IMG/VR virus record: IMGVR_UViG_3300009151_000077
Location: 1-61,461 of that record
Reading direction: 5' to 3' (one strand)
Origin: a virus
Taxonomy: Duplodnaviria > Caudoviricetes
Length of the DNA stretch: 61,461 nt
This document shows positions 24,988 through 57,068 of this stretch, piece by piece. A model generated the notes under the pieces. That model saw only the letters and a program-made list of their open reading frames with translations. It was not told where the DNA came from and made no database searches. The first letter of the stretch is position 1, and the number at the start of each line of letters is the position of its first letter. The position numbers and the translations under genes were made by a program.

Positions 24988-27900
24988 ATGTCAGATAATA
25001 ATATACCTTCACCAGCAGAATTTTATGGTAAAAAAAAACCATCAAGTACTAATAATATACCATCTCCAGAAGAATTTTACGGTACTTCATTAAAAAAAAA
25101 AGGGGTATCACAATCACAATTAGAGGAAGCGTCTACTTCATCGGATATATCAGACAACCAGGGAGATCAGCCTTCGGAGTCTTTAGGAGATGGTGATATA
25201 TATACATATAATGGTAGCACATATAAGAAGAGAGGCAACAAGTGGTATAAACTATCTGGTGGAAAATATGTACCTCTTACAGATGGTAATGTAGCTCAGA
25301 GAGTAGAGATATTAAACTCTAAGGCCAAAAAGTCAGTAGATAGATGGGCCAATGTTACTGAAGAGAATACAAACGCTAAGCCAAAATATAGAAAGGATGA
25401 CTATATAGATGAGGTTCAGAACACAGATTTCAATAGAACTGGTGATTCAAGAGCAATTCATGAAGAGGCATTACAAATGCAAAGAGAAGATATAGCTCAG
25501 AAAGAAGAAGAAAAATCTAGAAATAATAATCTTCTTCAAAATGAAGGTGTTTATACTGGATATCCTGGTAAAGATGGTAAGATTTATAAAATAATAGATA
25601 ATCATTGGTTTGAAGTAGATGCTCCTGATCCAAAATTTGAAACATTAACTCAGCCAGGAGGAGAAAATATATATAGAAAAATTGAACCAAAATCAGATAT
25701 TGATTTATATAATAAAGACCAGAAATGGAAACCTATAGATGATCAAAATAGATTAAAGTCACTTAATAAATATTTCAAAAAAGAAGCATCCTTAGACTCT
25801 ATGGATCAGGTATTTACTAATTATGACGATAGTGAAGAAAAAAAAGACAATTTATATAAAATAGATGATGGTGAGTGGAAGAGATTAATTCCAGGAGCTT
25901 CAGAGTATAGTACTGTTCTAGATGAAAATGCAATAAATGCATTAAATAGTAGGTACAATAAAAATATTGAATATAAAGATAAATCATCTGATAAAAAACA
26001 AGACTTAAAATTAAAATTTGTAGATATTAATTCTTCACTTACTGGTAAAACAGAAGAAGAAGCAGTAAGGATTTTAGAAGATAAATATGGAGATTATGGT
26101 TTCCAATTTTCACAAGAAGGGTTATTCAATATTGATAGAGTAAGAGTTAAAGCAGCAAATGGTAAGGAAATAACTGTAGAATTTGATGAAAAGAATTCAG
26201 AAGAGGCATTAAAGCTTAGAAATTTTATTGAACAAAATGCATCTAATAAAAGCAAATACAATTTATTAAATGTAATAGATAAAAAAGTTTCCGCCATAGG
26301 TGAGTCATATAATGATAAATATAATATATCTAGAGCAATACCTACTGATAATTCAAAGACGAGAGAAGAAAAGGAAAAGTATTACAATTCAGAAGAATAC
26401 AAAAAAATATTCAAGTCTTTATCTATAGATGAAATGGATGAAGAGGTTAGAAGAAGAGAAAGAGAATATCCTGTAACTAAAGGAAATATTTATAATATAT
26501 ATAAGCAAGAAAAAGAAAAGAAGTATAACTTAAATGATAAAAAAATAAAATCATTATACGAACAACTTAATATAGCTGAAAATTCTGGAAACAAACAACT
26601 TAAAAAAGAAGTTAAAAGTAAAATAGATACATACTTATCTGATGAAGTAATTAAAAATCAGGTTATGGATTATAATATTCATTTAAATGATTTAGTTGAT
26701 TCTGGAAAAAAATTAAAAACAGATATAAAACAATATGAATTATTGGTATCTGACTTTAATAAATCATATGCATCAATGTCCACAGAAGAGGTTGAAAAGC
26801 AGAAAAAAATATTAGAAAATAAAGCAGAGCAACTTGAAATAAGAAGAGATAATATATCTACTTCATTTAAAAACATAGAAGGATCACAGAAAAAAATAAA
26901 TATATTAGCTGGTGAGTACATCAGTTCAAAGGCAAAGATGGGTTCTTTTGGAGGTGCAATTGTAAATTCATTTTTAACTGGTGCTGTCAAAATAATTGAA
27001 CCAATGGTTTCTGCGTCATCATCTGGATATGATGTTGCGTTTGGAGTTAAAGAATCTATATCTCCAGAAGAAGAAAAATACTATAAAGATAAAGGATATA
27101 GTTATGAAGATATTCAAAATATAAAAAGAAACGAAAGATATAAAAGCGAAAAAGATAAGAGAAGAGAAGCTGTCATAGGAACAATAGGAAGCGAAACAAC
27201 AAAAGAATACATTAGTTCAAAAGATAATGGTTTTTTTGAGAAAGCATTATATGGTGTTGCTGAGTCAGCACCTGCAATGTTAGCCTCCTTAACTGGATCA
27301 TCAGCCGCAAGCTTTGGTGCTTTAGCATCACAATCATATAGCTCTATAGAAGATGAAATGCTTGGTGATGAAGATTTTAAAACTACTACTGCATTAGATA
27401 GATCTTCAATAGCAATACCATATGCATTGCTTATGGGTGTACTTGAAAATTATGGATTGAAAAACGCACTTAAAGGATCATCATTAACAAGTGGAATACT
27501 TAAAGGGGTTATATCTAGATCATTAAAGAAAATGCCATCTGGTGCTGAAAAAGAAGTTCTTCAACAAATAATAGATAAAGAAGTTAAAAATGTAATAGCA
27601 AAGGGAGCTATAAAAATAGTTAATGGTGCACTTGCTGAATTTGAAACTGGTGCTACTCAATCATTAGTATTAGATATTGGTTTAAAAGAAATATACAATC
27701 AATATAAAGATAAAACTAAAAACTTAACGGGAGGTGAGTCTTTTGATACACCAGATTCATTTGCTGAAGGAGCATCAAGGGTATGGGAAGATGGTTTAAT
27801 GGAAGCTATAGGTGGTGTTACTATATCTACATTTTCTAATGTTTCAACTGGAATTGTTACAGGAAATATTTCATTATACGATGAGAAAGATTTAAAATTC

Positions 27901-30900
27901 CTTGATGAAATATCTACCGATACTGAATTTAAAAAAATAATTGTAGCTAATTTAAAATCAGATATATTAAAAGGCAAAATAACTAAATCTGAAGCTGAAG
28001 CAAAACTTCAGAAAATGAACGAATTTTCAGGTATAATTCAAAACATGCCTGATGGACTTACCTCTGAACAACAAATAGAGTCTATTAATTTAATAGCTGA
28101 GAAAAAAAGATTAGAAAAAGAAATAGAAGGAAAAGATCCTTCTCTAGTAGATGCTCAAAAAAATAGAGTATCTGAGATAAATGAACAACTTAAAACAATA
28201 AGTAACAATGCCACTAAAAAAACCACAGAACAACAGCAAGGTAGCCAAGCAGAAGGCGGTGTCAGCCAATATCAAGGAGCTGGTGAAGGACAACAAAAAG
28301 ACGGGAATGCAGAAGGGGGACAACGGGAAGCCAAGGTCAATGAAGCAGATAGTGGCAATAGCACTATCCCAAGCAAAGTACAAGAAGAAGTAGCAACATA
28401 TAGAGCTGAAGAACAAGCTGAGCTTCTTAAAGCTATACCTAAAATAGAAAGCTATAAAGTTGATGGAAAGTTAGATAAAACTCTAATGCCTAAAACTGTA
28501 TTAGCTAAATATAATAAGATATACAATAAGTATGATAAATTAATAAGCCCTCTATTAGAAGCTACAACTGAAATAAAAATTGATAAGCAAAGTATTTCTA
28601 CTAATACTACAGAAGAAGTAGATAGAGTGAAATCACTTTCTATTGAGTCAGAGGATGGAGCTACATTTAATCTTGATGGTAAGAAGTATGACGGTCCTGG
28701 ATTAGTTGTTCCTGTAATTAGTATGAATACAACAATAGAAGATATAACTCCAGAGATGATATCTAAATTTGTTGAAGAACATGCTGATAAGATTGGAGAT
28801 TTTGGTACAGTAAAAGTTGGTATATATAAGTTTCCTAATAGTAATCAAGTATCTATAGACCTTAACATACTTGCACCTGAATCATCTAGAGATCAAGCAA
28901 TTGAGTTTGGAAAAATGTCTGGTCAAGAGTCTCTATTTGACATGAGTACATTTGAGAATGTTAAGACTGGTGCAACAGGAGAGAATCCAATGCAGTTTAC
29001 ACCACAGCAGTTTAAAGAAATTGCTAAGGCGTTGAAGGAAGGCAGGATGCCAAATGTATTTGGTACTCAAGAGGATACTAAAAATAATAGTAAGGAATCT
29101 ACAGCTAAGTCTGAAACTAATAAAGCAGACTATAAGCAAAACTTAGTTACTGCTGAAAATTCAAGAGAGGTAGCATCAAGACAAAAAACACCAATAAGAC
29201 AAAGGATAGCTAAAACAGTATCATTAGTAATGAGAGCTTTGCCTGGTGTTAAGATATATCTTCATAACAATGAAGCAGAGATGCATCAAGCCTTGGCAGA
29301 TTCTAGTGGTAAATCTTTAGAAGAAGTATCTAAACAGATAGGTAATTCAGCTGGGTCTCATATTTCAGGAGAGATTCATATAAATATGAATACCGCAAGG
29401 GAAAATACATTAATGCATGAGGCATTCCATGAGGCAATACTAAGGTCTGGAAAATCGGTTAAGACTATTATTAATTTTGCTAATGGACTTAAAAATATTG
29501 TATTAGATAAAGATGTTAAGGCTAAGTTAGATGATTTTGTTTCTATGTATAATTTAGATTCTAACAAAATTGAAGATCTTGAATACATTGATGAACAAAT
29601 AATATTAGAAAATAAAAGAAGAATAGCTGACGGAAAATTAGCTATGAATGCAAAAGAATCAGCTGATTATATTGACTATATAACTGAATCAACAAAATCT
29701 GAGGAAATGCTAGCAGAACTTGGTTCTATTATGGCTGAAGCGGAGACCGAACTAACAACTACAAAGCTGCATCAGTTCTTAAACCTAATTAATAGAATAG
29801 CTAAGAGCTTACGCTTACCTGTAATATTGAAGTCTACAGCAACTACACAAGAGGCCGTTGACTTTATTAATACTATGGCTACAAGTCTTAGGACTGGTGA
29901 GGAGATTGTAGGAGATAATGAAGGTGACGGTAAAATTAGAAGGCAAGCCACAGAAATCATGAAGGGAAATGAATCCCTAGAGAAGTTTGGTTTAAAAAAA
30001 GGAAAAAATATAACTAGAAAAATTGGCGAAGCCCTTGAAGCTAGACAACGTTCTAAATACGGTACAATTGCTCAAAAAGATAACTCTGCTGAAGCTCGTA
30101 AAAAAATATCTAACTGGATGGTTGATGAAGTAAAATACTTTGTCGAAATTATGGGTGATAAAAGTGGTAAAGGTTGGTATGGTGAGTTGTATCAAAAGTC
30201 ATTAGATAGAATGTCTAAGATTTTCCCTGAAATGAAAACAGATCAAAATGCAAGAGATTTGTTTACAATGTTGGTGGCAATTACATCTGATGGGCAAAAA
30301 GTAATGAGTAATTTTAAATTAGCAGCTTCTGCTTATGATTACTATAAGAAAAATGGAGTAATGCCTACCACTCTTCCAGGTCAAAGAGTAGCTTCTTTTG
30401 AAGCAAATCTAAAAAGAATAAATGAATTACTTATTGATTATAATGGTGATGTAGCCGCTATCAAAGAAAATTTGATGGAAGTTAAATCTATTCAAGAGAT
30501 AAATAAAGAGAGAAAGAAAGAAGGTTTAGAAGCGTTATCAACCAATTGGCCAGTTACGTTTAAGGCTCCATTCGCAGCATCTGTTTTTGGACCTAAACTA
30601 GGCATGTTCTTTTCTAATTTATCTGGAAACGAATCATATCCAACTTTAGATCGTTGGTGGTCTAGAACATTTAATAGATATAGAGGTACATTGATACCTG
30701 AATTAAAAAGTGGATTTACTAAAAAAGGTGAAGCTATTGGTCTTGATAGATTTAAGATATTGCTTGAAAGTCCATCTATGAGTAATGAAGAAGCACTATT
30801 AGCGTCTAAGTCTTACCGTGATTCATATGCCGCTAAAGGATACAAGAATGGAACTGAAGTAGAGAAAGCAGCAAATACAATATACAAAAATGCTTTTGAA

Positions 30901-33900
30901 AATCTTAATGATGCTCCATTCACTAAAAATGATCGTCAATTTATGTATGACACTATATCTGACGCTGTTAATAAATTAAATAAGCAGGAATATGATCTAA
31001 GTATTGCAGATGTTCAGGCTATTCTTTGGTATTTCGAAAAAAACTTATACAAAACATTAGGAGTTCAAGCAAAAATTGAAGGAATCAGTTATGAAGATGC
31101 CGCAAATTATACATATGATAAGTGGAAAGAGGCTGGTAATAAGTTTAACTACGAGATTAATCAATCTGAAGAAGGTCAATCTGTAGAGGATGAGGATATA
31201 GATGATACTGAACAACCATCCAAAATAAAACAGCAGAAGACCTTACAAGAAGAATTACCATTATATAAATTTGGAAATGAAATAACTACAACTATAGATC
31301 AAGATAAACCTATATCTGTTTTACCATTACCAGAAAGATATATGGATGGATATGAAGAAGCTACTGGTAAAAAATTAACTCAAAAAGATAAACAAAGTTT
31401 CCTATATAAATTAGGAAGAGATCATAAATATAAAAAAGGAGGCGTATATATTGATATATCAAATCTAGAAAATAAAGACACGGTAAATGGATATGTAGCT
31501 TCATCTGGAGAAATAAATATTGATCCAAAAACAGGAAGAGCTAGCCTTAATATATCTGAAAATATTTCAAGTCCTGAAGAAAGTTCTATTGGAAAGATTA
31601 TTAAAACAAATTTATTCAAGAAGAAAGCTGGATGGAATTGGACTTCAGATTCTGATAAATCAAGATATGATAAAGTAGAAACTTTAGTGTCTGTTGAAAT
31701 TGGAAGCAAACACGTTTATACCCTTGGTTTTAAATCAACTACACCAATACAGTTAAAAAATTATTCAGAATCTAAAAGCGAGCCTAGGTTAAGACCTACT
31801 ACAAAAGGACAATTATTTTTAGGTAATTATGTTGGAAATATTACAATAAGAGGTAAAAAACATCCTGTATATGATAATGTATACTCATACGATCAGAATG
31901 ATTATCAAACTTTAGATAGATTAAATTATAAATATTTAAAGCCTGAAGGACTACAAAGTTTTTATCCAGAACAAAGAAATGCAACATATAAAGAGCTAAA
32001 ATACAATCCATCAATAACACTAAAAGATAGATTAACAGATGCTGATCAATACATATTTGACAAACTAGGAATTAAGAATGCTGAATATGTATCTGGTGGA
32101 GTAGAAGCTTCTATTTATGATATAGGTGCTGGAAAAGTTATAAGAATATCTAAAAACCCTAGTAATTTTTCAAATAATCTTGTAAATAAAAAAATAGAAG
32201 GAGTTATTCCAGTTTATGCAACAGGTAAGGTTATTCTTCCTAAGAGAATGTTTGGTCTAGAAGATTACACGGGGCAAGTTATAAAAACAGAATCCAGAGA
32301 AGGTGGCTTAAAAGAAACCGAACCATTATATTATTCAATACTTAAAAAAGGAGATTCGTTAAATGTTAAAGAAGATTTAAATGCAATTTTAAATAAGCTT
32401 ATTAACTATATAACAAAAACACTTGATAAAAATATACGTTTTACTGATTCTATAGAAGATCAATTAACTATATTAAATGAACAAGAATTAGATGAATTTA
32501 AAAATAATCTTGACGATAAACAATTAAAAGATTTAAATAGAATAATAGAAATAAAAAACAATCTTAAAAAAATAGGAGTAAAAGAAAGAGACTCGCATAC
32601 TGGAAATTATGTTAGAAATTCAAATGGAGATCTTGAGGCAGTTGACCTTCAGTATGTTCGTTTTGATGAAGGATCTGAATTTAAAAAGACAGAAGAGAAA
32701 AATGTAATAAAACTACAAAAGACTCCACAAGAAACAAGAATGGATAATGAGTCTGAGTCTGTATTCAAGAAGTCATTAGATCGTGGAACAACTTGGGCTA
32801 AAGCTACTCAGAATGCACTAGACTACATACAGAAGTCAAAGTGGTATCAAGATGCAAACGACATAGATAGAGAGCAAAAGGTAAGGGACTTTAAGCAGTC
32901 TAAAAATCAAAAACTAAAGAAGGCACCATCTGTAGCTAAGATAATGGGAACTCCTAAGCCTAACATGGTCACTGTGAACGAGGTAGTTGCATTTAAGGAC
33001 CAACTAAGAAAAGAAGCCAAGGCAGCTAGAGAGGCCAAGGCTGACCTTAACTCAAAAAGAAAGTCATTAGGTGACGCCATCAAGGGAATGGTTAAGCTTG
33101 GAAAATTGAAGGCTACTCAAGCAGTCACAATCATCAAAAGAGTTAGTCAAGTAAACCTTGACAACCCAGTTATGGTTGAAAGACTTATTGACTATGCGTC
33201 AAGAGTATTTGAAAGAGCAGACTACCAAGAGAGATTAGACAGAGCATTCTCTTACAGAAGAGCGATCAGACGATTGTTGAAGTCAGATAACCAAGCACAG
33301 GTTATTGGTATGGCTAATCAGTTTACAAAGATAGATCCATCTATGGTTGAAAATATAGATGAGTATATCGCTATGGCTGATATAGTTAAGAATGCAGTGG
33401 CTCCTTCAAGAGCAAAAAAGTTCACTCTTGATAAGGAGAATTACTTTGATACTGATTCTGCAAAAGGTTTTGATATGGTATTAAGACAAGCTGCAAACAT
33501 AGAGACTGTATCAAACTTTGTTAAAGATGTACTTGAAAAACAAGAACAAAAATTAAAGGATGAGCTATTAGCTACTAATAATGATCTATTAGAATCTGGA
33601 GTTATATCTGCTGATATGACAGCAAAAGAGATACAAGAAATTGTAAACGCAATGAAAGATCCAGAATATAAAATGGATAGCCTAGAAAAAGAAAAGTACA
33701 TGAAGGCTTATCTATCAAAAAGATTTGAATCATTGGCATCAATTATTACAAATATTGTATACAATCCTAGAAACGAAAATCCACTTACTGGTGAGAAGAT
33801 GGCAATAGATGAAAAAGATAGAGCTATAATATTGAATTTACTAAAGGTAGATCTATCAGAGATGTCAAATAAAGATTCTATATTTATTGTTGAGGCAATG

Positions 33901-36576
33901 GATAACTTTATAACCAATGGAATAACTAGTAAATTAGAGGGTGCATTATCAACATACGAAGGAGAGCTTGGTTTAAAGAAAGAAATAAAATCTGGTAAAG
34001 TAGCTAGAGCATTGAAGCTTTACTTTAGCCCTAAAATAGGAAGATACTCTTCTGTAGAATTTACTCCACTACCACTTATGATAGAGAGGATGTTTAGTGG
34101 AGTTACAAGCGGAATAAGTGTAATGAAATCTATGGGACTTAATATTATTATTAATGGTGTTAATAAAGCAAATAATATTCATAACAAAATAATAAATGAA
34201 TACTACGATAAATTCATAAAGAATAGTAAAACATTTCATAATCCTGAAAATGTATACGAAAGAGGTATGCTTTCATTCTTAAAAAGAAATGTTACTGGAT
34301 CATTAGCAGAAATGAAGGCCGAAACAAATAGAAGGATTAATTTAATAACACAAAGTATTGATGTTTTAAGTAACTATGGAGATGAGTCTCAAAAAGCTAT
34401 GGCTGAAATTTATCAAAAATTATTTGATAAGTTAGGCGTAAGCACTGGAGACATAGACATAATTAACGCAAGAGCATCAAAAGAAAATAGAGAAGCTGTA
34501 GATTGGTGGATTAATGAGTGGTCTAAGCAATATAAAGATCTTGCTGATATAAGTTTATCTGTATATAATTATGACCTTGGAAGTGATTTAAACTATACTC
34601 CAGATCAATTCAAAACACTTAAGACAGAATCAATTGATAAAAACTTATTAGAGCGTAATTCATCGTTCTTAATAAGCATGGATAAAGTAACAGATAAGAA
34701 TAAGACAGGTGTTTTAATAGAATCAACTAGACCTACTAACATGGAGAAAGGTAGATATGTAAGTCTTGACTTTGATTCAAACAACTCAAACTCATTGAAG
34801 GGTGCATTAGTTGATATCAATACAGCCGCTGGAATAAGACAAGTTGATGGATTCTTAAATTCAGATCTATTAAATAAATTAATACCTACGGCTAAAGATA
34901 GAGATGCACTTAAAATAAGAGTAAACAGATACATAAGAAGAGCTAAAGGTAAAATAACCGTTCCTACAGATTTATATAAAGATGTTGATACTGTGCTTAA
35001 TTTTGCCGCGAGCCTTGGAGTTGGTAAGGCACTAGGTGGTGTACTACAGTCAGTAAAACAAACAATACCTATTGCACTAAGTACAGCTATAAACACTGGT
35101 AAGTTTAATGTAGCTGGAGTTGAATTCAATCAATGGCTTAATAAGACTGGAATGCCAATATCAAATAGAGGCATCGAGTCATTATCTACTATAGATTCTA
35201 TAGACAGAAGAATGGAAGCTAAAGGAACTAAGATTAAAGATTCATTAAAATGGATTGCAGAAAAACAACAGCTATATATAAAGTTTTTCTTGTCAAGACC
35301 AGATGTATTTATTGCAAGATCAGGTTTCGAGTCTTATTACTTACAGTATATGGGAGAGAAGTCTATAGACTGGGCCAATCATGAACCAAATCAAGACGCA
35401 TTAAACTATGCTCAATCTATGGTTGATAGACAGCAAAATATATCTGACCCAATGCTTGGCGGAGAGTTCTTAACATCTGAGGAATCAGTTAAAAGAATAG
35501 CTAAAAAAGTGTTATTCCCATTTGCTTCTTTTGCTTTAAATCAAAAGGCTAGATTAAATTCAGACTTAATAAATTTAGCATCTAAAACAACTAGCGAACA
35601 AGATAAAAAAATAGCAGCTAAATCAGCTATAGCTACGGTTGCTGAAATGGTTGCATACAGAGCTATGTCTGCTGCTATTGGTTATTCATTCTACAAGGCT
35701 GCTGAAATGGTAATCAATGGGTTTATAGGTGATGATGATGATGAAGATAAAGATCAAGATAAAAAATGGTGGATAAGTGCATCTAAGTTTCCAATTAAGT
35801 CAATGATAACTGACCTTGTATCTCCAGTACAGATGGCAGATCAATACGTTACTATGGGAACTGATTTCCTTTTATCTCTTGTTACTGGAGATACTAAGGC
35901 TGAGTTAGATGAGTCTGTTAAACAAGAAAATGAAATAAGAGCACTTAAGGATCAAGATCGAATGACTCCAAATCAAGAGGAAGACTTTAGACAAAAAGTA
36001 AAAGATAAGAGTACCTTTCAAGTTGGAAGTCAGTACGATCTTGTTAATGGATTTGGTATGGTTTCAATTGCATCAGACTTATACAAAAAGATATACTATG
36101 ACTATACTTTAGCTATGACTGGAGAGTTTGAGGATGAGTATAAAGGAAATATAACTACTAAGAAAATAAGACCAGTTGAGCAAGACTTAATGAAAAATAC
36201 TCTTATGTTCTCTGCATTATATGCCGCAGGTATTCTTCCAAAAGAATCAGATCAGATCGTTACAAAGGTTGTTAACATGGTTAAGAAGAACGCCATGTCA
36301 GAATCTGAGTATGAAAAATATAGTGAGTTCAAAACAGAATTTAAGCGTGAGCCAAGTCCATTTGAGATGGGAATGATTAAATCTGAAAAGAAGTACCAAT
36401 ATATATCTGACGATGTAAACTGGGTAAATACTAAGGGTGGATTAACATTAAGTCAAGGTAGAGAGTACGTTAAAATAATCAATACACTTGGTGAGGTTGA
36501 TAACAGTACTCTACTTGAGATAAAGGCTGGTAAGACAGCTGATCAAATAGTTAAGTCCATGAGGGCAAAGTTATAA
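24988..36576 (+). CDS. Giant polyvalent internal virion/ejection protein (3862 aa)
   Basis: Uninterrupted ORF with HExxH, GWY...DRW...QA.LW and kinase-like segments and a long helical C-terminus. Confidence 0.75.
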   Translation: MSDNNIPSPAEFYGKKKPSSTNNIPSPEEFYGTSLKKKGVSQSQLEEASTSSDISDNQGDQPSESLGDGDIYTYNGSTYKKRGNKWYKLSGGKYVPLTDGNVAQRVEILNSKAKKSVDRWANVTEENTNAKPKYRKDDYIDEVQNTDFNRTGDSRAIHEEALQMQREDIAQKEEEKSRNNNLLQNEGVYTGYPGKDGKIYKIIDNHWFEVDAPDPKFETLTQPGGENIYRKIEPKSDIDLYNKDQKWKPIDDQNRLKSLNKYFKKEASLDSMDQVFTNYDDSEEKKDNLYKIDDGEWKRLIPGASEYSTVLDENAINALNSRYNKNIEYKDKSSDKKQDLKLKFVDINSSLTGKTEEEAVRILEDKYGDYGFQFSQEGLFNIDRVRVKAANGKEITVEFDEKNSEEALKLRNFIEQNASNKSKYNLLNVIDKKVSAIGESYNDKYNISRAIPTDNSKTREEKEKYYNSEEYKKIFKSLSIDEMDEEVRRREREYPVTKGNIYNIYKQEKEKKYNLNDKKIKSLYEQLNIAENSGNKQLKKEVKSKIDTYLSDEVIKNQVMDYNIHLNDLVDSGKKLKTDIKQYELLVSDFNKSYASMSTEEVEKQKKILENKAEQLEIRRDNISTSFKNIEGSQKKINILAGEYISSKAKMGSFGGAIVNSFLTGAVKIIEPMVSASSSGYDVAFGVKESISPEEEKYYKDKGYSYEDIQNIKRNERYKSEKDKRREAVIGTIGSETTKEYISSKDNGFFEKALYGVAESAPAMLASLTGSSAASFGALASQSYSSIEDEMLGDEDFKTTTALDRSSIAIPYALLMGVLENYGLKNALKGSSLTSGILKGVISRSLKKMPSGAEKEVLQQIIDKEVKNVIAKGAIKIVNGALAEFETGATQSLVLDIGLKEIYNQYKDKTKNLTGGESFDTPDSFAEGASRVWEDGLMEAIGGVTISTFSNVSTGIVTGNISLYDEKDLKFLDEISTDTEFKKIIVANLKSDILKGKITKSEAEAKLQKMNEFSGIIQNMPDGLTSEQQIESINLIAEKKRLEKEIEGKDPSLVDAQKNRVSEINEQLKTISNNATKKTTEQQQGSQAEGGVSQYQGAGEGQQKDGNAEGGQREAKVNEADSGNSTIPSKVQEEVATYRAEEQAELLKAIPKIESYKVDGKLDKTLMPKTVLAKYNKIYNKYDKLISPLLEATTEIKIDKQSISTNTTEEVDRVKSLSIESEDGATFNLDGKKYDGPGLVVPVISMNTTIEDITPEMISKFVEEHADKIGDFGTVKVGIYKFPNSNQVSIDLNILAPESSRDQAIEFGKMSGQESLFDMSTFENVKTGATGENPMQFTPQQFKEIAKALKEGRMPNVFGTQEDTKNNSKESTAKSETNKADYKQNLVTAENSREVASRQKTPIRQRIAKTVSLVMRALPGVKIYLHNNEAEMHQALADSSGKSLEEVSKQIGNSAGSHISGEIHINMNTARENTLMHEAFHEAILRSGKSVKTIINFANGLKNIVLDKDVKAKLDDFVSMYNLDSNKIEDLEYIDEQIILENKRRIADGKLAMNAKESADYIDYITESTKSEEMLAELGSIMAEAETELTTTKLHQFLNLINRIAKSLRLPVILKSTATTQEAVDFINTMATSLRTGEEIVGDNEGDGKIRRQATEIMKGNESLEKFGLKKGKNITRKIGEALEARQRSKYGTIAQKDNSAEARKKISNWMVDEVKYFVEIMGDKSGKGWYGELYQKSLDRMSKIFPEMKTDQNARDLFTMLVAITSDGQKVMSNFKLAASAYDYYKKNGVMPTTLPGQRVASFEANLKRINELLIDYNGDVAAIKENLMEVKSIQEINKERKKEGLEALSTNWPVTFKAPFAASVFGPKLGMFFSNLSGNESYPTLDRWWSRTFNRYRGTLIPELKSGFTKKGEAIGLDRFKILLESPSMSNEEALLASKSYRDSYAAKGYKNGTEVEKAANTIYKNAFENLNDAPFTKNDRQFMYDTISDAVNKLNKQEYDLSIADVQAILWYFEKNLYKTLGVQAKIEGISYEDAANYTYDKWKEAGNKFNYEINQSEEGQSVEDEDIDDTEQPSKIKQQKTLQEELPLYKFGNEITTTIDQDKPISVLPLPERYMDGYEEATGKKLTQKDKQSFLYKLGRDHKYKKGGVYIDISNLENKDTVNGYVASSGEINIDPKTGRASLNISENISSPEESSIGKIIKTNLFKKKAGWNWTSDSDKSRYDKVETLVSVEIGSKHVYTLGFKSTTPIQLKNYSESKSEPRLRPTTKGQLFLGNYVGNITIRGKKHPVYDNVYSYDQNDYQTLDRLNYKYLKPEGLQSFYPEQRNATYKELKYNPSITLKDRLTDADQYIFDKLGIKNAEYVSGGVEASIYDIGAGKVIRISKNPSNFSNNLVNKKIEGVIPVYATGKVILPKRMFGLEDYTGQVIKTESREGGLKETEPLYYSILKKGDSLNVKEDLNAILNKLINYITKTLDKNIRFTDSIEDQLTILNEQELDEFKNNLDDKQLKDLNRIIEIKNNLKKIGVKERDSHTGNYVRNSNGDLEAVDLQYVRFDEGSEFKKTEEKNVIKLQKTPQETRMDNESESVFKKSLDRGTTWAKATQNALDYIQKSKWYQDANDIDREQKVRDFKQSKNQKLKKAPSVAKIMGTPKPNMVTVNEVVAFKDQLRKEAKAAREAKADLNSKRKSLGDAIKGMVKLGKLKATQAVTIIKRVSQVNLDNPVMVERLIDYASRVFERADYQERLDRAFSYRRAIRRLLKSDNQAQVIGMANQFTKIDPSMVENIDEYIAMADIVKNAVAPSRAKKFTLDKENYFDTDSAKGFDMVLRQAANIETVSNFVKDVLEKQEQKLKDELLATNNDLLESGVISADMTAKEIQEIVNAMKDPEYKMDSLEKEKYMKAYLSKRFESLASIITNIVYNPRNENPLTGEKMAIDEKDRAIILNLLKVDLSEMSNKDSIFIVEAMDNFITNGITSKLEGALSTYEGELGLKKEIKSGKVARALKLYFSPKIGRYSSVEFTPLPLMIERMFSGVTSGISVMKSMGLNIIINGVNKANNIHNKIINEYYDKFIKNSKTFHNPENVYERGMLSFLKRNVTGSLAEMKAETNRRINLITQSIDVLSNYGDESQKAMAEIYQKLFDKLGVSTGDIDIINARASKENREAVDWWINEWSKQYKDLADISLSVYNYDLGSDLNYTPDQFKTLKTESIDKNLLERNSSFLISMDKVTDKNKTGVLIESTRPTNMEKGRYVSLDFDSNNSNSLKGALVDINTAAGIRQVDGFLNSDLLNKLIPTAKDRDALKIRVNRYIRRAKGKITVPTDLYKDVDTVLNFAASLGVGKALGGVLQSVKQTIPIALSTAINTGKFNVAGVEFNQWLNKTGMPISNRGIESLSTIDSIDRRMEAKGTKIKDSLKWIAEKQQLYIKFFLSRPDVFIARSGFESYYLQYMGEKSIDWANHEPNQDALNYAQSMVDRQQNISDPMLGGEFLTSEESVKRIAKKVLFPFASFALNQKARLNSDLINLASKTTSEQDKKIAAKSAIATVAEMVAYRAMSAAIGYSFYKAAEMVINGFIGDDDDEDKDQDKKWWISASKFPIKSMITDLVSPVQMADQYVTMGTDFLLSLVTGDTKAELDESVKQENEIRALKDQDRMTPNQEEDFRQKVKDKSTFQVGSQYDLVNGFGMVSIASDLYKKIYYDYTLAMTGEFEDEYKGNITTKKIRPVEQDLMKNTLMFSALYAAGILPKESDQIVTKVVNMVKKNAMSESEYEKYSEFKTEFKREPSPFEMGMIKSEKKYQYISDDVNWVNTKGGLTLSQGREYVKIINTLGEVDNSTLLEIKAGKTADQIVKSMRAKL
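28208..28393 (+). CDS. Small basic phage protein overprinted in the +1 frame of the giant ORF (DUF6496-like)
   Basis: MPLKK...VSANIKEL...KQIVAIALSQA matches a recurrent small phage protein pattern; A-rich region before the ATG. Confidence 0.55.
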   Translation: MPLKKPQNNSKVAKQKAVSANIKELVKDNKKTGMQKGDNGKPRSMKQIVAIALSQAKYKKK

Positions 36577-45305: not shown

Positions 45306-45356
45306 AAGTCGGGACAGGACTCGAACCTGTACACGTGACCATCTCACATCCCGACT
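45306..45356 (-). ncRNA. tRNA-like RNA lacking an anticodon arm
   Basis: AGUCGGG/CCCGACU acceptor stem, GUGA-GAUGG-UCAC D-like arm, ACAGG-UUCGAGU-CCUGU T arm; only 4 nt between D and T arms. Confidence 0.6.
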
Positions 45357-49080: not shown

Positions 49081-49344
49081 TCATAGCTCTAGTTCTATAT
49101 GGTTAATAACTTGGTATTCGTAGTCAACGTCGTTGTTGTATGGATATGCCTGTATGATATACTGCAACCATTCACGTTCGTTCGTGAATTCATACTTCGG
49201 CATGTAGTCTAAGTGCACGTCAAATTTTCCCTCAGAAAATTCAATTGTTTGCCACTCGTCTAGTTCTTCGAATTGTATGCAGTGTGTTTCGACTCCGTGA
49301 GTCAGCTCTACATATCGGATGATAGGATTGATTTTTGCTTTCAT
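49081..49344 (-). CDS. Small early hypothetical protein
   Basis: ORF in chain. Confidence 0.55.
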   Translation of the reverse strand: MKAKINPIIRYVELTHGVETHCIQFEELDEWQTIEFSEGKFDVHLDYMPKYEFTNEREWLQYIIQAYPYNNDVDYEYQVINHIELEL

Positions 49345-50066: not shown

Positions 50067-50297
50067 TTAAAGGTTAATATTTTCATCATTTAGTTCAAGA
50101 GATTTCTCGTAGTCAGAAAGAAATTTCTCGTAATCAGAAAGTAATTTTATTAGATTTGTCGTTTGCAATTCATTGAATGTATTACTTAATGTCTTAATAA
50201 ATCTATCAGCGTTATTTTTTCTTACTGCTCTTTCAAATGCTTCAAGCACCTCTCCGTTGTCAAATTGAAATAGATTTTTTCTTTCTTGGTTGTTCAT
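50067..50297 (-). CDS. Small early hypothetical protein
   Basis: Preceded by the repeated leader. Confidence 0.65.
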   Translation of the reverse strand: MNNQERKNLFQFDNGEVLEAFERAVRKNNADRFIKTLSNTFNELQTTNLIKLLSDYEKFLSDYEKSLELNDENINL

Positions 50298-50722: not shown

Positions 50723-50929
50723 TTATTGGTTAATATATCTCTCGTTAAATTGTTCTTGAGTCACCTCAGTATTGTCGATGCCCAAGTTGTATGCTATCTC
50801 TGCAACGTATTCTTTGTTATCGGGATTCAATATGCTATCGGGCCAATATCCTGTGCATGTTTCGGTTTCTTTTACTATAGCACATCCGCTTAATATTATT
50901 GTTGCTATTAAAATTAATATCGCTTTCAT
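50723..50929 (-). CDS. Small early lipoprotein
   Basis: MKAILILIATIILSG|C lipobox; preceded by the repeated leader. Confidence 0.65.
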   Translation of the reverse strand: MKAILILIATIILSGCAIVKETETCTGYWPDSILNPDNKEYVAEIAYNLGIDNTEVTQEQFNERYINQ

Positions 50930-51434: not shown

Positions 51435-51959
51435 TTACATTTTAAGCATTGTGGTCTCTGTCCCATCGTCTCCATGTTCTGGAAATTCTCTATTAAATTT
51501 ATCTTGATGTGTTTCCCAAAATCTAATGTCAGACAACCAAGATATTGAGAACTTTTCTAGTCCTGCTTCAATGCACATGTCGTAAACTTTCTCCGTATCT
51601 CTAGCTGTAGGGAAGTTCTTATCGAAGGAATACATGTCATTTAATACTTCGTTACGTCCTGTGTCATCTCCTACTACATAACCTCCACCACTTGTAGTTA
51701 CTAGTTCAACGGCATGTCGATTAGTTCTTGCCCATGCATATCTTTTATTAGACATGTCTTCTTTTGCCTTAGCTGTTGAGCCTTGTATAAAGCAAGCCTT
51801 AAAGGTTTTTAGTAACTCTACCTCTGTCATGGTAAAGTCTACGAGGATTGTCTCGTGCTCTAGCACACACTCTAACGTTACTCTGTTACCTACTATCTCG
51901 TGTACCTTGTGGTCACGACCTTGCATTTTTCTGTGGTTTACATTTACGATTGCTCTCAT
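51435..51959 (-). CDS. Early hypothetical protein (174 aa)
   Basis: Preceded by the repeated leader. Confidence 0.7.
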   Translation of the reverse strand: MRAIVNVNHRKMQGRDHKVHEIVGNRVTLECVLEHETILVDFTMTEVELLKTFKACFIQGSTAKAKEDMSNKRYAWARTNRHAVELVTTSGGGYVVGDDTGRNEVLNDMYSFDKNFPTARDTEKVYDMCIEAGLEKFSISWLSDIRFWETHQDKFNREFPEHGDDGTETTMLKM

Positions 51960-51983
51960 TGTTTCTAAGTTTTAATTGGTTAA

Positions 51984-52157
51984 TTAATCTTGACAAGCAT
52001 ACAACACTTGAATCAAGCTATCGTATAAGAACATCCCGTTGTATGTCTCAAAGCCAAATCGATTGATAGTGATGTCGCTGTCATTTAATTGTAGTGTGGT
52101 GTAAGTTCCCGTGCGTTGACCATAGCTGTCTTCAACGCATACATAGTAAGTTTTCAT
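51984..52157 (-). CDS. Small early protein (57 aa) downstream of hammerhead C
   Basis: Read manually (MKTYYVCVEDSYGQ...YACQD). Confidence 0.65.
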   Translation of the reverse strand: MKTYYVCVEDSYGQRTGTYTTLQLNDSDITINRFGFETYNGMFLYDSLIQVLYACQD

Positions 52158-52173
52158 GGTTTCTAATTTATTT

Positions 52174-52225
52174 GGTTAAGACGGCACGAATGCCGTTTCG
52201 ATTATTTAAATCTCATCAGTTAACC
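52174..52225 (-). ncRNA. Type I hammerhead ribozyme (HH-C)
   Basis: GGUUAA CUGAUGA GAUU-UAAAU-AAUC GAAA CGGCA-UUCG-UGCCG UC|UUAACC; complete core, three stems, cleavage between 52180 and 52179. Confidence 0.92.
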
Positions 52226-52228
52226 TTG

Positions 52229-52402
52229 TTACCATCCTCCATATGGCTCTACCTCTAAGTCGTTAAAATTCATTATTGAATCAGATAGTGACCACTCGTA
52301 CCATGCGACAAGCACATCGTTACCTAATACCTCAACTACTTCTCCTACTCCGTGACCATAGTTGAATTCTCCTACTATGTCTCCTACTTTTAATACGTTC
52401 AT
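52229..52402 (-). CDS. Small early protein (57 aa), SH3/KOW-like
   Basis: Read manually (MNVLKVGDIV...GVGEVVEV...VLVAW); stop is 3 nt before HH-C. Confidence 0.65.
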   Translation of the reverse strand: MNVLKVGDIVGEFNYGHGVGEVVEVLGNDVLVAWYEWSLSDSIMNFNDLEVEPYGGW

Positions 52403-52414
52403 AATTTCTAAGTT

Positions 52415-52597
52415 TTATTGGTTAATAAAATCTTGTGGGCTCATCTTGATCAAGTCCTCTTCTCTGAAGTTCTTAAGGTCTTGTAACTTGCTTCTATCTA
52501 CATCTATTATCCCGTGTACAGGGTGTTTGATGTCGTTGATGCCTACGAAGTTGATGTTACGAATCAACTGCTCTCTGATTTCAAGTTCTCTTGTCAT
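52415..52597 (-). CDS. Small early hypothetical protein (60 aa)
   Basis: Preceded by the leader; its last codons (INQ*) are the next leader. Confidence 0.65.
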   Translation of the reverse strand: MTRELEIREQLIRNINFVGINDIKHPVHGIIDVDRSKLQDLKNFREEDLIKMSPQDFINQ

Positions 52598-52624
52598 AAT
52601 TTCTAAGTTTTATATGGTTAATGA

Positions 52625-52732
52625 TTATCTCCAACCTCTTACACGTAATCGGTTAGTTCTTACTAATGTGCCCTCAAAGAAGAAGCCCCAAATCTCGAAT
52701 GCTCCCTCGATTCTAATGATTTTGCTAGTCAT
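52625..52732 (-). CDS. Small early peptide (35 aa) downstream of hammerhead B
   Basis: Read manually (MTSKIIRIEGAFEIWGFFFEGTLVRTNRLRVRGWR). Confidence 0.6.
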   Translation of the reverse strand: MTSKIIRIEGAFEIWGFFFEGTLVRTNRLRVRGWR

Positions 52733-52750
52733 AATTTCTAGGTTTTTATT

Positions 52751-52807
52751 GGTTAAGACAGCACCTTGCGAGTGCTGTTTCGTCTCATAAAGACTCATCA
52801 GTTAACC
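52751..52807 (-). ncRNA. Type I hammerhead ribozyme (HH-B)
   Basis: GGUUAA CUGAUGA GUCU-UUAUG-AGAC GAAA CAGCAC-UCGCAAG-GUGCUG UC|UUAACC; cleavage between 52757 and 52756. Confidence 0.92.
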
Positions 52808-52811
52808 TGTG

Positions 52812-52916
52812 TTAAAATGAACATGAAGTTCCGTGCACGATAGCATTGTAAACGACTACTGCTACTACTAACATTAAGCCTAAAGCAAATGTTAAGGGGG
52901 CTGTTAAGTTTTTCAT
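52812..52916 (-). CDS. 34-aa single-TM peptide flanked by hammerheads A and B
   Basis: Read manually (MKNLTAPLTFALGLMLVVAVVVYNAIVHGTSCSF). Confidence 0.6.
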   Translation of the reverse strand: MKNLTAPLTFALGLMLVVAVVVYNAIVHGTSCSF

Positions 52917-52933
52917 TGTGTTAGGTATTTGTT

Positions 52934-52983
52934 GGTTAAGACGCCTCACGGCGTTTCGGTCATTAAGACCTCATCAGTTAACC
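52934..52983 (-). ncRNA. Type I hammerhead ribozyme (HH-A)
   Basis: GGUUAA CUGAUGA GGUC-UUAAU-GACC GAAA CGCC-GUGA-GGCG UC|UUAACC; cleavage between 52940 and 52939. Confidence 0.92.
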
Positions 52984-53200
52984 TTGTTGCAAGCCACGTG
53001 AAACTGCTTGCCCTCTATTAATCCCTACTAGTGTTGTTATTCTAGTGGTTCCGACACACAACCACCCGAGTAGTGTATTGTGTGCCCTAGGTATGTCCTA
53101 GTCTTGTGCTATCTTATTGACCTCCTCACCGATTGCAGTCTCAAATAGTATCGTATGTCAAATTGTCATGGTGACCTCTCGTCAGCTGAGCCGTTGCCCT
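52984..53200 (-). ncRNA. Putative structured non-coding leader of the early transcript
   Basis: No ORF; at least four hairpins (52989-53011, 53027-53046, 53053-53086, 53087-53101). Confidence 0.4.
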
Positions 53201-53203
53201 CTG

Positions 53204-53211
53204 CAATACTA
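53204..53211 (-). promoter_or_regulatory. Candidate early promoter -7 element (TAGTATTG)
   Basis: One mismatch to TAnnTTTG, with A-tracts upstream; no clear -33 TTTG. Confidence 0.3.
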
Positions 53212-53717
53212 ATGCTAAAACTTTGAATAAGTAACACTTTTTTTGAAAGTTTTTTTTGCTTGACATGTTAAAACAGCGGATTATTTGTTGCATTGCTTTG
53301 ATAATCAACACGTTACACGACGAAAAAAAAGATGAAAAAAGTTTGTTTTTTTTTGTTACGTGATGATATAACCTCCCCTATGAAGACATGAATTGCTATC
53401 AGATTGGCTTTCCTGTTGGCTCGATTGGTCGCTCGATTGGTCGGTCGGTCGGTCACCTTGTCAGTCATTCTATTTAACATAATGCAAATTATATGACAGC
53501 CTCATCGAGCAGTCGAGCGGACGGCAGGCTTGTTACCTGTGTAATATACAGCACAGGAGGGCGGACGGGGTGACCATGGAAAAGCTAGAAAATCCGACCT
53601 CAATTTCTGAAAACGGAGACCCCCCCCTTCGATTGGAAAGCGTTTCCCCCTAGCGAGCGATCACGTCAGATGGGGGTATTACCCAAAACCTATGAATATC
53701 TAACCCCAAATTTTTAA

Positions 53718-55508: not shown

Positions 55509-57068
55509 ATGATAGTAAAACAAGTGCATTTTGGCGATGAGGGCCAAAAAAAGTTGAAAAACGGAATCAAAATTATCGCTGGGGCGGTAAAGAGCACCTT
55601 AGGTGCAAGAGGTCGGACTGTATTAATAGAGTCTGAGCACCATGTAGGTGGTTTAACAGTCACGAAGGACGGTGTAACGGTCGCAAAGTCGATCAACCTG
55701 TATGACCCAACTGAGAACCTGGCTGTAATGATGATGCGTCAGGCGGCAGACAAGACGGCAACTGTAGCTGGTGACGGTACAACAACATCAATCGTGTTAG
55801 CTGAGGCTATGATCGACTCTGCTGACAAGCACATGGGATTCAATGAGAACGTTATCGAGGTGATCCGTGAGATCAATGACATTACGGGAACAATTGTATC
55901 TAGACTTGAGAAGATGAGCAAGAAGGTGAGTGGCAAGAAGTTATTTGACGTGGCATCTATCAGTGCAAACAACGACAAGCAGATCGGTAAGATGATCTCT
56001 GATGCATTTAACGAGGTTGACATGGTAACTGTTGAGAACAGCATGAACTCGGAGACACATGTAGAGATTATTAGCGGAATGAAGATCGATCGTGGTTACA
56101 CATCGAAGTACTTCATCAACGAGCAGAAGAAGCAGGAGTGTATACTTGACAACCCATACATTTTAATTACAGATCACGAGATCAACAATTTATCCAACTT
56201 AGAGGCTATCTTAGCACCAATTGTAAGCCAAGGCAGGTCGTTATTGATCATCGGTACACTTGGACCAAACGCAATGAACACATTAAATGTGAACGTGGCA
56301 CAGGGCAAGATCAAGGCTTGTAACATTATCCCCCCATCGTTTGGATACAGGAAGAAGGACCTACTAGAAGATCTAGCTGTAGCACTTGGAGGTACGTACC
56401 TATCTGAGGACACTGGAGACGACTTAACGCTTGTTACTATGGCTGACTTAGGTAAGGCATCGAAAGTTGTTGTGAAGAAGAATATGACAGTATTTATGAA
56501 TGTCGCTGAGGTTAAGGAATCTATCGACATGAGGGTTGCTGACTTGAAGCATCAGATATGGGAGACAACTGACGCAAACGACAGAGAGTTCTTAAAGCAG
56601 AGAATTGCAAATATCTCTGGCGGTGTTGGTGTTATCTACGTTGGTGCGTTGAGCGACATTGAGCAGAAGGAGAAGAAGGACAGGATCGATGACGCTGTGT
56701 GTGCTGTTACTGCTGCGATGGACGAGGGTATATTACCTGGTGGTGGTATTGCATTACTTAACTGTATGGATTTGGTTATGGGTGACAGTGTTGCACAGAA
56801 CATTATGTTCGATATGTTGAGCTCACCATTTGATCAGATACTTTTAAACGCAGGCAAGGACCCATCGGCTATTAAGTTAGAGTTAGAGGGATTAGGCTTT
56901 GGTTATGACGTTAAGAACGAGGTATACGGAGACATGATGAAGATGGGTATCATTGACCCAACGAAGGTTACCAAGAACGCACTACTTAATGCTGTATCTG
57001 TGGCAACAACAATTATGAGTACAAACGCAATTATAACAAACATAAGAGACTATGAAGGTTCTAAATAA
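55509..57068 (+). CDS. groEL: Phage chaperonin GroEL
   Basis: VTKDGVTVAK, AGDGTTT, DRGY.S.YF, GILPGGG and GIIDPTKVT motifs; no GGM tail. Confidence 0.95.
   Translation: MIVKQVHFGDEGQKKLKNGIKIIAGAVKSTLGARGRTVLIESEHHVGGLTVTKDGVTVAKSINLYDPTENLAVMMMRQAADKTATVAGDGTTTSIVLAEAMIDSADKHMGFNENVIEVIREINDITGTIVSRLEKMSKKVSGKKLFDVASISANNDKQIGKMISDAFNEVDMVTVENSMNSETHVEIISGMKIDRGYTSKYFINEQKKQECILDNPYILITDHEINNLSNLEAILAPIVSQGRSLLIIGTLGPNAMNTLNVNVAQGKIKACNIIPPSFGYRKKDLLEDLAVALGGTYLSEDTGDDLTLVTMADLGKASKVVVKKNMTVFMNVAEVKESIDMRVADLKHQIWETTDANDREFLKQRIANISGGVGVIYVGALSDIEQKEKKDRIDDAVCAVTAAMDEGILPGGGIALLNCMDLVMGDSVAQNIMFDMLSSPFDQILLNAGKDPSAIKLELEGLGFGYDVKNEVYGDMMKMGIIDPTKVTKNALLNAVSVATTIMSTNAIITNIRDYEGSK

Follow-up and report, generated by a model that had tools for sequence, protein, structure and literature searches.

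The virus record IMGVR_UViG_3300009151_000077 (Duplodnaviria; Caudoviricetes), rated complete and analysed here over its full length of 61,461 bases (hereafter the window), contains three type I hammerhead ribozymes (A, B, and C) within 810 nucleotides (nt), located between small open reading frames (ORFs) on the minus strand and sharing one stem I, GGUUAA/UUAACC. These ribozymes probably cut a transcript into linear early messages, placing new 5'-OH-UUAACC leader ends 22-24 nt before the AUG. In the proposed mechanism, each ribozyme would cut a leftward polycistronic early transcript co-transcriptionally, just 5' of the next gene, so that the downstream RNA would begin with 5'-OH-UUAACC and an unpaired A-rich leader, and the upstream RNA would terminate in a folded ribozyme bearing a 2',3'-cyclic phosphate. 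The resulting linear messages of one or a few genes would have their stability and translation uncoupled from those of their neighbours. Stem I would be identical in A, B, and C because its 3' strand doubles as the opening hexamer of a leader motif that is used at ribozyme-free gene starts as well, with the 5' strand merely kept complementary.

Identification of the hammerheads

Hammerhead A spans positions 52983-52934, hammerhead B 52807-52751, and hammerhead C 52225-52174, all on the minus strand, with predicted cuts after C52940, C52757, and C52180, respectively. Each was recognized in the sequence by a strict hammerhead pattern, by a purpose-written parser, and by R1, a covariance model trained on 60 hammerheads from phage contigs other than the window (A, 72.4 bits, expectation value (E) 3e-15; B, 65.4 bits, E 1.5e-13; C, 76.0 bits, E 4e-16). 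The order of elements is alike in all three (GGUUAA, CUGAUGA, stem-loop II, GAAA, stem-loop III, UC, UUAACC), and each has the conserved core (CUGAUGA, GAAA, GUC) with the cleavage site after H17 and, according to the parser, three helices, of which II and III are closed by loops and I is open. Stem I is the same throughout, whereas stems II and III are unlike in sequence and length. The strict pattern matched three times in the window and never in 100 shuffles. Besides A, B, and C, no match was returned by R1 over the window with default filters at E<=10, and with filters off nothing else between 44500 and 54000 scored better than E 0.9. On sequence evidence, the three motifs are genuine hammerheads, not chance matches, and self-cleavage giving 2',3'-cyclic phosphate and 5'-OH ends is predicted for each. 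The possibility that they are dead relics was rejected, as their cores are intact and covariation is strong.

Curated models perform differently. At gathering scores, Rfam produced no match anywhere in the window. In E-value mode, Hammerhead_1 (RF00163) matched hammerhead C alone (22.7 bits, against a gathering score of 34), RAGATH-1-hammerhead (RF03152) gave 26.1 and 23.5 bits (the latter for hammerhead B; gathering score 56.3), and Hammerhead_3 remained sub-threshold at 26.5 bits (gathering score 48.5). Across 20 loci of the same family, 35 members are detected by R1 and none by Rfam at gathering scores. The missing Rfam calls are a limit of the Rfam models, and the subfamily is overlooked at curated thresholds; since pattern, covariation, and R1 scores agree, its members are genuine hammerheads that the curated models do not see. 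The window motifs resemble RF00163 and RF03152 in core and type I topology and align with them end to end, but the upstream hairpin of RAGATH-1 is not conserved in them and the RAGATH-1 stem I has another sequence.

The GGUUAA subfamily

A scan of IMG/VR for GGTTAACTGATGAG..CGAAAC yielded at least 118 viral stretches, and the subfamily is thus a large comparative set; the subfamily counts given below refer to the matches listed in that scan. Type I hammerheads numbering 168 (154 unique members) were parsed in 103 of the 118 loci by the parser, which required at least five of the six stem I pairs of each candidate. Among 60 aligned relatives, 95.9% of cells are paired, compared with 75.4% in shuffles, double-sided changes occur in 11 of 17 pairs, and none of 500 shuffles was as high on three measures; stem I itself shows compensatory change from GC to AU in six of the 60. 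Stem-loop II is 13 nt long in 135 of the 154 unique members, and its pentaloop follows UNARU (U 115/115, N, A 102/115, R 98/115, U 107/115), while stem III varies between 12 and 45 nt in length. The base before GGUUAA is an A in 151 of 154 members, as is the base after UUAACC in 145 of 154, and the first ATG lies 18-24 nt past the cut in 114 of 154; the corresponding distances in the window are 23, 24, and 22 nt. Hammerheads A, B, and C belong to this subfamily by their stem I with flanking A's, their 13-nt stem-loop II, and their match to R1, although loop II of hammerhead B (UUAUG) departs from the consensus.

The identical stem I is therefore no peculiarity of this trio; it is a near-invariant hallmark of the whole subfamily. 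Of 47 hammerheads in the subfamily loci that lie outside the reach of the search pattern, 32 carry GGTTAA/TTAACC, nine carry the compensatory GATTAA/TTAATC, and six carry other variants. An unbiased scan for CTGATGAG..CGAAAC found no GGTTAA/TTAACC in 44 type-I-like hammerheads (34 of 116 loci), and because the stem is absent from these 44, it is specific to the subfamily and not general. A description of a GGUUAA subfamily was not found in the literature, but its members may already sit in the supplementary alignments of Perreault et al. 2011 (PMC3088659). In cellular genomes, 13 stretches contain the search pattern; 10 of these loci are confirmed by R1, four of them labelled Bacteroidota (one being a complete Paraflavitalea chromosome) and the remainder contigs of metagenome-assembled genomes (MAGs) with various labels; the host group is probably Bacteroidota. 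Two MAG contigs carry dense arrays, with eight R1 matches in ~4 kb (L243 534-4572, plus strand) and six in ~2.1 kb (L247 228-2312, minus strand), and in both almost all small genes are bracketed by hammerheads.

UUAACC as a leader motif

Six gene starts in the same cluster of the window have a UUAACC(A)-A-rich-ATG leader that lacks a ribozyme and is much like the ribozyme-borne ones. Such leaders stand at 52616-52621 (60-aa ORF, 52415-52597), 52420-52425 (57-aa ORF, 52229-52402), and 51978-51983 (174-aa ORF), and further ones at 50728-50733, 50072-50077, and 49101-49106, all on the minus strand; with filters off, R1 detects no hammerhead at these sites. Across the subfamily loci, hammerhead-free TTAACC..ATG occurs at 162-169 per Mb, compared with 52-69 per Mb for foreign hexamers and for TTAACC..ATG in other phage sets. 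The stem I hexamers of sister phages, described below, are not enriched in the same way in their own loci (72.6 versus 64.7 per Mb). The first 23-26 nt of the two cleavage products delimited by the window hammerheads are unpaired in the minimum-energy fold. Two of the hammerhead-free leaders on the minus strand retain the two halves of a stem I: at 51977-51990, GAUUAA directly abuts UUAACC, and at 52615-52637, GGUUGG is separated from UUAACC by a 9-nt loop. These two sites have the look of empty sites or of traces left by lost ribozymes, and R1 scores them at 9.6 and 8.6 bits (E about 1-2), values that chance could produce.

A different source of constraint on stem I would be the fast fold of the ribozyme itself, in which the UNARU pentaloop contacts the A-GGUUAA/UUAACC-A helix and the leader plays no part. 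Natural hammerheads require contacts between loop II and stem I (Perreault et al. 2011, PMC3088659), and the length of stem-loop II, the pentaloop, and the flanking A's are strongly conserved here. When stem-loop II of this design was searched for with no constraint on stem I, however, sister hammerheads came to light in which the 4-bp + UNNNU stem-loop II is joined to dozens of stem I sequences (e.g., GTAACA, GGCTAA, GTCAAA, GAACAA). Because the same stem-loop II goes with many stems I, a loop II contact is unable to fix the middle positions of stem I; no clear covariation pattern was seen between loop II and stem I variants, and UUAACC at hammerhead-free leaders is left unexplained by such a contact. 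The fold-based explanation is accordingly considered unlikely.

The sister scan (80 matches listed, 14 of them with identifiers from the GGTTAA scan) also bears on whether neighbouring hammerheads need matching ends. The newly fetched sister loci contain, among the matches listed, 90 hammerheads with dozens of other stem I sequences, and pairs within a locus are identical in stem I in 13 of 80 cases, in stem II in 11 of 80, and in stem III in 23 of 80. The corresponding figure for stem I within loci of the GGUUAA group is 68 of 103. Since sister neighbours mostly differ in stem I, phage hammerheads in tandem do not, as a class, need matched ends. The GGUUAA group, in which ends mostly match, is exceptional, and it is also the group whose 3' stem I strand doubles as a leader element. 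In six sister arrays (L259, L263, L266, L317, L325, and L328), the stem-loop II design is shared and stem I differs from neighbour to neighbour, the common ground of these stems being mainly the outer G-C pair and the A-U pairs adjoining the core.

Cleavage products and the question of circular RNAs

Cleavage at A and B would release a 183-nt RNA (52939-52757, minus strand) with a 5' UUAACC leader, a 34-aa ORF, and hammerhead B at its 3' end, and cleavage at B and C would release a 577-nt RNA (52756-52180, minus strand) with three ORFs and hammerhead C at its 3' end. Both would open with UUAACC and close with GGUUAA-core-GUC. An earlier note on this DNA had described these two products, their lengths, their ends, and their coding content (one 34-aa ORF; three ORFs), as well as three ribozymes that share stem I and vary in the other stems, and the sequence, the parser, and the ORF list agree with it on every point. 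The 34-aa ORF (52812-52916) is hydrophobic, starts with an ATG 23 nt after cut A, and has no match in PHROG or Pfam. The 577-nt product encodes, in addition to the 60-aa and 57-aa ORFs with hammerhead-free leaders, a 35-aa ORF (52625-52732, ATG at 52732, 24 nt after cut B). Beyond cut C, the ATG of another 57-aa ORF (51984-52157) follows at 22 nt; all of these ORFs are on the minus strand.

The earlier note had further proposed that the shared stem I could let excised fragments form circles. Under this explanation, which is judged quite improbable, stem I would be selected because fragments re-pair and are ligated, by hammerhead reversal or by host RtcB, into circular coding RNAs or joined cassettes. 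The pairing on which it depends is sound: the 5' UUAACC of each fragment is complementary to the GGUUAA of its own 3' ribozyme, so that a hammerhead could be rebuilt at the cyclic phosphate, and ViennaRNA assigns this closing helix a probability of 0.32 in the 183-nt product and 0.14 in the 577-nt product (cost 0.3 and 2.2 kcal/mol). Closure averages 0.46 in 24 family fragments no longer than 400 nt, compared with 0.35 for the shuffle medians, and 16 of the 24 exceed their own median. However, this trend is not significant, and interior-shuffled controls reach the observed closure in 70 of 200 cases for the 183-nt product and 26 of 60 for the 577-nt product. The products also fold no better than shuffles (z-scores of -0.69, with 38 of 200 as good, and -0.44, with 32 of 100 as good) and lack the compact folding by which viroid-like RNAs bring their ends together and keep the ribozyme silent. 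Any ring should re-cleave, as it would hold an entire hammerhead whose stems II and III are stable.

Comparative data divide similarly. Of 63 pairs of adjacent hammerheads in subfamily loci, 54 could cross-pair fully, but where adjacent hammerheads differ in stem I, all 21 pairs retain their own pairing (of which the parser demanded at least five of six base pairs) and nine of the 21 lose cross-pairing. Among 49 well-flanked members, 32 have a neighbour within 3 kb and 17 have none, and the partnerless members have the same stem I, a result partly forced by the search pattern. Sister phage arrays have neighbours with unrelated stem I, as described above. Cut-to-cut spacings (n=65) fall into residue classes of 18, 22, and 25, with no bias towards multiples of three, and the 183-nt unit contains a stop codon. 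With regard to the chemistry, type I is the sole architecture that puts nearly the whole ribozyme on the cyclic-phosphate fragment (PMC3088659), and type I retrozyme monomers show 1-3% self-ligation in vitro and 30-80% circularization with RtcB in the experiments described in PMC7229834. Each of the three Bacteroidota genomes in which the motif lies on a long contig encodes RtcB, whereas searches of the phage for RtcB (PF01139) and Rnl2-type RNA_ligase (PF09414) found none; the search for T4 Rnl1 (PF09511) gave no matches even in its control genomes and is hence uninformative. Circles were sought in other phage clusters and not detected, according to a data-not-shown statement in PMC3088659. 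Ligation into circles as put forward in the earlier note is thus chemically possible, with a precedent in retrozymes and an enzyme in plausible hosts, but no test favours selected rings, and the alternative offered in the same note, that stem I is kept through its overlap with the leader, is the better supported in view of the ribozyme-free leaders and their enrichment in the subfamily. The boldest form of the idea deserves very little credence: a universal palindromic stem I would act as a common sticky end, docking followed by RtcB ligation or reversal would yield circular or reshuffled, exonuclease-resistant early messenger RNAs (mRNAs), and compatibility itself would be selected. Low-level re-ligation into rings as a by-product is plausible.

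It is also conceivable, but very improbable, that cleavage is regulated, with competing hairpins gating the ribozymes and tuning the ratio of joined to separated messages. A UUAAC at 52811-52815 (minus strand), where the 34-aa ORF has its stop codon, is complementary to GUUAA in the stem I strand of hammerhead B (hairpin 52802-52815), and the predicted occupancy of this alternative hairpin in the A-to-B product is ~0.39, compared with 0.32 for the closing helix. Such a hairpin is nevertheless clear for hammerhead B alone, and Rfam scans of the window gave no ligand or switch motif.

Several points weigh against processing into linear messages with a leader-bound stem I. Cleavage, end chemistry, and product topology in this phage are predictions, and the curated Rfam hammerhead models stay under their gathering scores. 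Stem I is near-invariant even between contigs in which stems II and III have drifted apart without restraint, and a need for mutually compatible ends is a constraint that would also give such invariance. The predicted closure of the end helix is substantial, both in the window and in the family fragments, and RtcB is present in three of three plausible host genomes. The role of UUAACC in the leader is putative, its enrichment is only ~2.6-fold, and some of the sites counted as hammerhead-free in other loci may be ribozymes that the parser missed. The motifs, their family membership, the covariation, the geometry, and the reuse of the leader are shown by the sequences, while cleavage in vivo, linear products, and a contribution of the new 5' end to translation or stability are inferred.

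Genomic setting

From ~53300 to ~45300, all plausible genes lie on the minus strand, and most are small ORFs without family assignment. The presumed 5' leader of the early transcript (52984-53300, minus strand) appears to be untranslated, containing short ORFs only, none with the conserved leader. A sigma-70 promoter scan gave fewer matches than shuffles, so it is uninformative on the promoter, and no terminator-like site was found on the minus strand between 53000 and 48600. Ten small ORFs were compared with PHROG and Pfam; none matched Pfam, and the ORFs inside the products could be assigned no function. Families of unknown function in PHROG were matched by a 118-aa ORF (5.8e-9) and by the 60-aa ORF (E 0.0053). 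A blastn search of 51900-53300 against GenBank phages returned no match. Elsewhere, the record has matches to terminase, portal, virion structural protein, primase/helicase, helicase, and exonuclease.

A close relative whose 174-aa protein is 84% identical has other upstream genes and no hammerhead, and because of this difference the ribozyme-bearing cassettes are regarded as accessory. In this hammerhead-free relative (L238 4400-4660), the intergenic region upstream of the early genes contains long G-rich and C-rich tracts. The differing gene sets, together with the variable ORFans found between hammerheads and the recurrence of identical hammerheads in several contigs, could also be taken to mean that the ~50-bp units act at the DNA level as cassette boundaries for the recombinational swap of small early genes, with ribozyme activity secondary. 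This explanation is extremely improbable: strong compensatory covariation in stems II and III, along with intact cores, demonstrates selection on the RNA fold, and only 6+6 bp are conserved beyond the core, which is short for homologous recombination.

Other features of the window were recorded in passing. A 68-aa protein at 50723-50929 (minus strand) has an N-terminus of the lipoprotein type and weakly matches PHROG 1119 (Cor superinfection exclusion protein, E 5e-6). A GroEL-like chaperonin is encoded at 55509-57068 (plus strand); its best tblastn match is the groEL of an uncultured Caudoviricetes record (47% identity), followed by matches in Bacteroides and Flavobacterium phages. A giant 3862-aa ORF occupies 24988-36576 (plus strand); no PHROG family matches it at E<=1e-5. 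Where the minus-strand early cluster and the plus-strand genes diverge, the intergenic region contains three tandem copies (53419-53454) of a 12-nt unit (GCTCGATCGGTC-like). At the distal end of the minus-strand cluster, a transfer RNA (tRNA)-like element (45306-45356, minus strand) has an acceptor stem, a D-like arm, and a canonical T arm (GGUUCGAGUCC) and is without an anticodon arm; the Rfam tRNA model scores it at 19.8 bits (gathering score 29), and ARAGORN, which called no tRNA in the window, does not recognize it. The element could be a signal for processing by RNase P/Z or the remnant of an attachment site.

Comparison with known systems

Hammerheads clustered on one strand and bracketing variable genes or short gene blocks in phage DNA were described by Perreault et al. 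2011 (PMC3088659), and the arrangement in the window is of the same kind. According to that paper, clustered phage hammerheads cleave polycistronic RNA in vitro, the cutting of long transcripts into gene-length mRNAs was proposed, and spliced or circular products were already considered. In contrast with the phage examples presented there, all three hammerheads of the window are type I, belong to one subfamily, have a near-invariant stem I and a 13-nt stem-loop II, and stand 22-24 nt before start codons. Processing into transcripts of unlike stability or translation is a standing proposal that, according to a 2019 review, needs work (PMC6765202). In the literature, nothing on circular mRNAs from DNA-phage hammerheads was found beyond Perreault et al. 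2011; the idea of circular products is not new and is not favoured by the comparisons made here.

Metazoan type I retrozymes (Cervera and de la Pena 2020, PMC7229834) are likewise tandem type I hammerheads, with monomers of 170-400 nt whose identical-ribozyme ends can be ligated into circles. Retrozymes are repeats of one non-coding sequence, and their circles have been detected in tissues, whereas the flanking ribozymes in the window are unlike in stems II and III, the interiors are unique and coding, compact folding is lacking, and the system is known from sequence alone. With regard to viroid-like RNAs, the units are not flanked by copies of the same ribozyme in repeated sequence, and the monomer fold is not compact. 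The placement of the hammerheads is closer to that described by Lopez-Galiano et al. 2026 (PMC13725137), in which a type I hammerhead lies just 5' of an ORF and self-cleavage makes the 5' end that is translated; for some RNA viruses, self-cleavage in the 5' untranslated region is reported there to be required for translation. That system concerns fungal and plant RNA viruses and eukaryotic cap-independent translation, unlike the DNA phage examined here, in which initiation would be bacterial.

A circular mRNA in a DNA phage would be striking if true. The purpose of bacterial and phage hammerheads is still open (PMC6765202), and the window is a clean example in which a ribozyme stands at a fixed distance from the start codon and one stem is frozen while the others drift, a contrast that is open to direct tests. 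The questions that it raises are whether a ribozyme-made 5'-OH end ~22 nt from the AUG serves the translation or stability of phage messages, and whether UUAACC is a leader signal.

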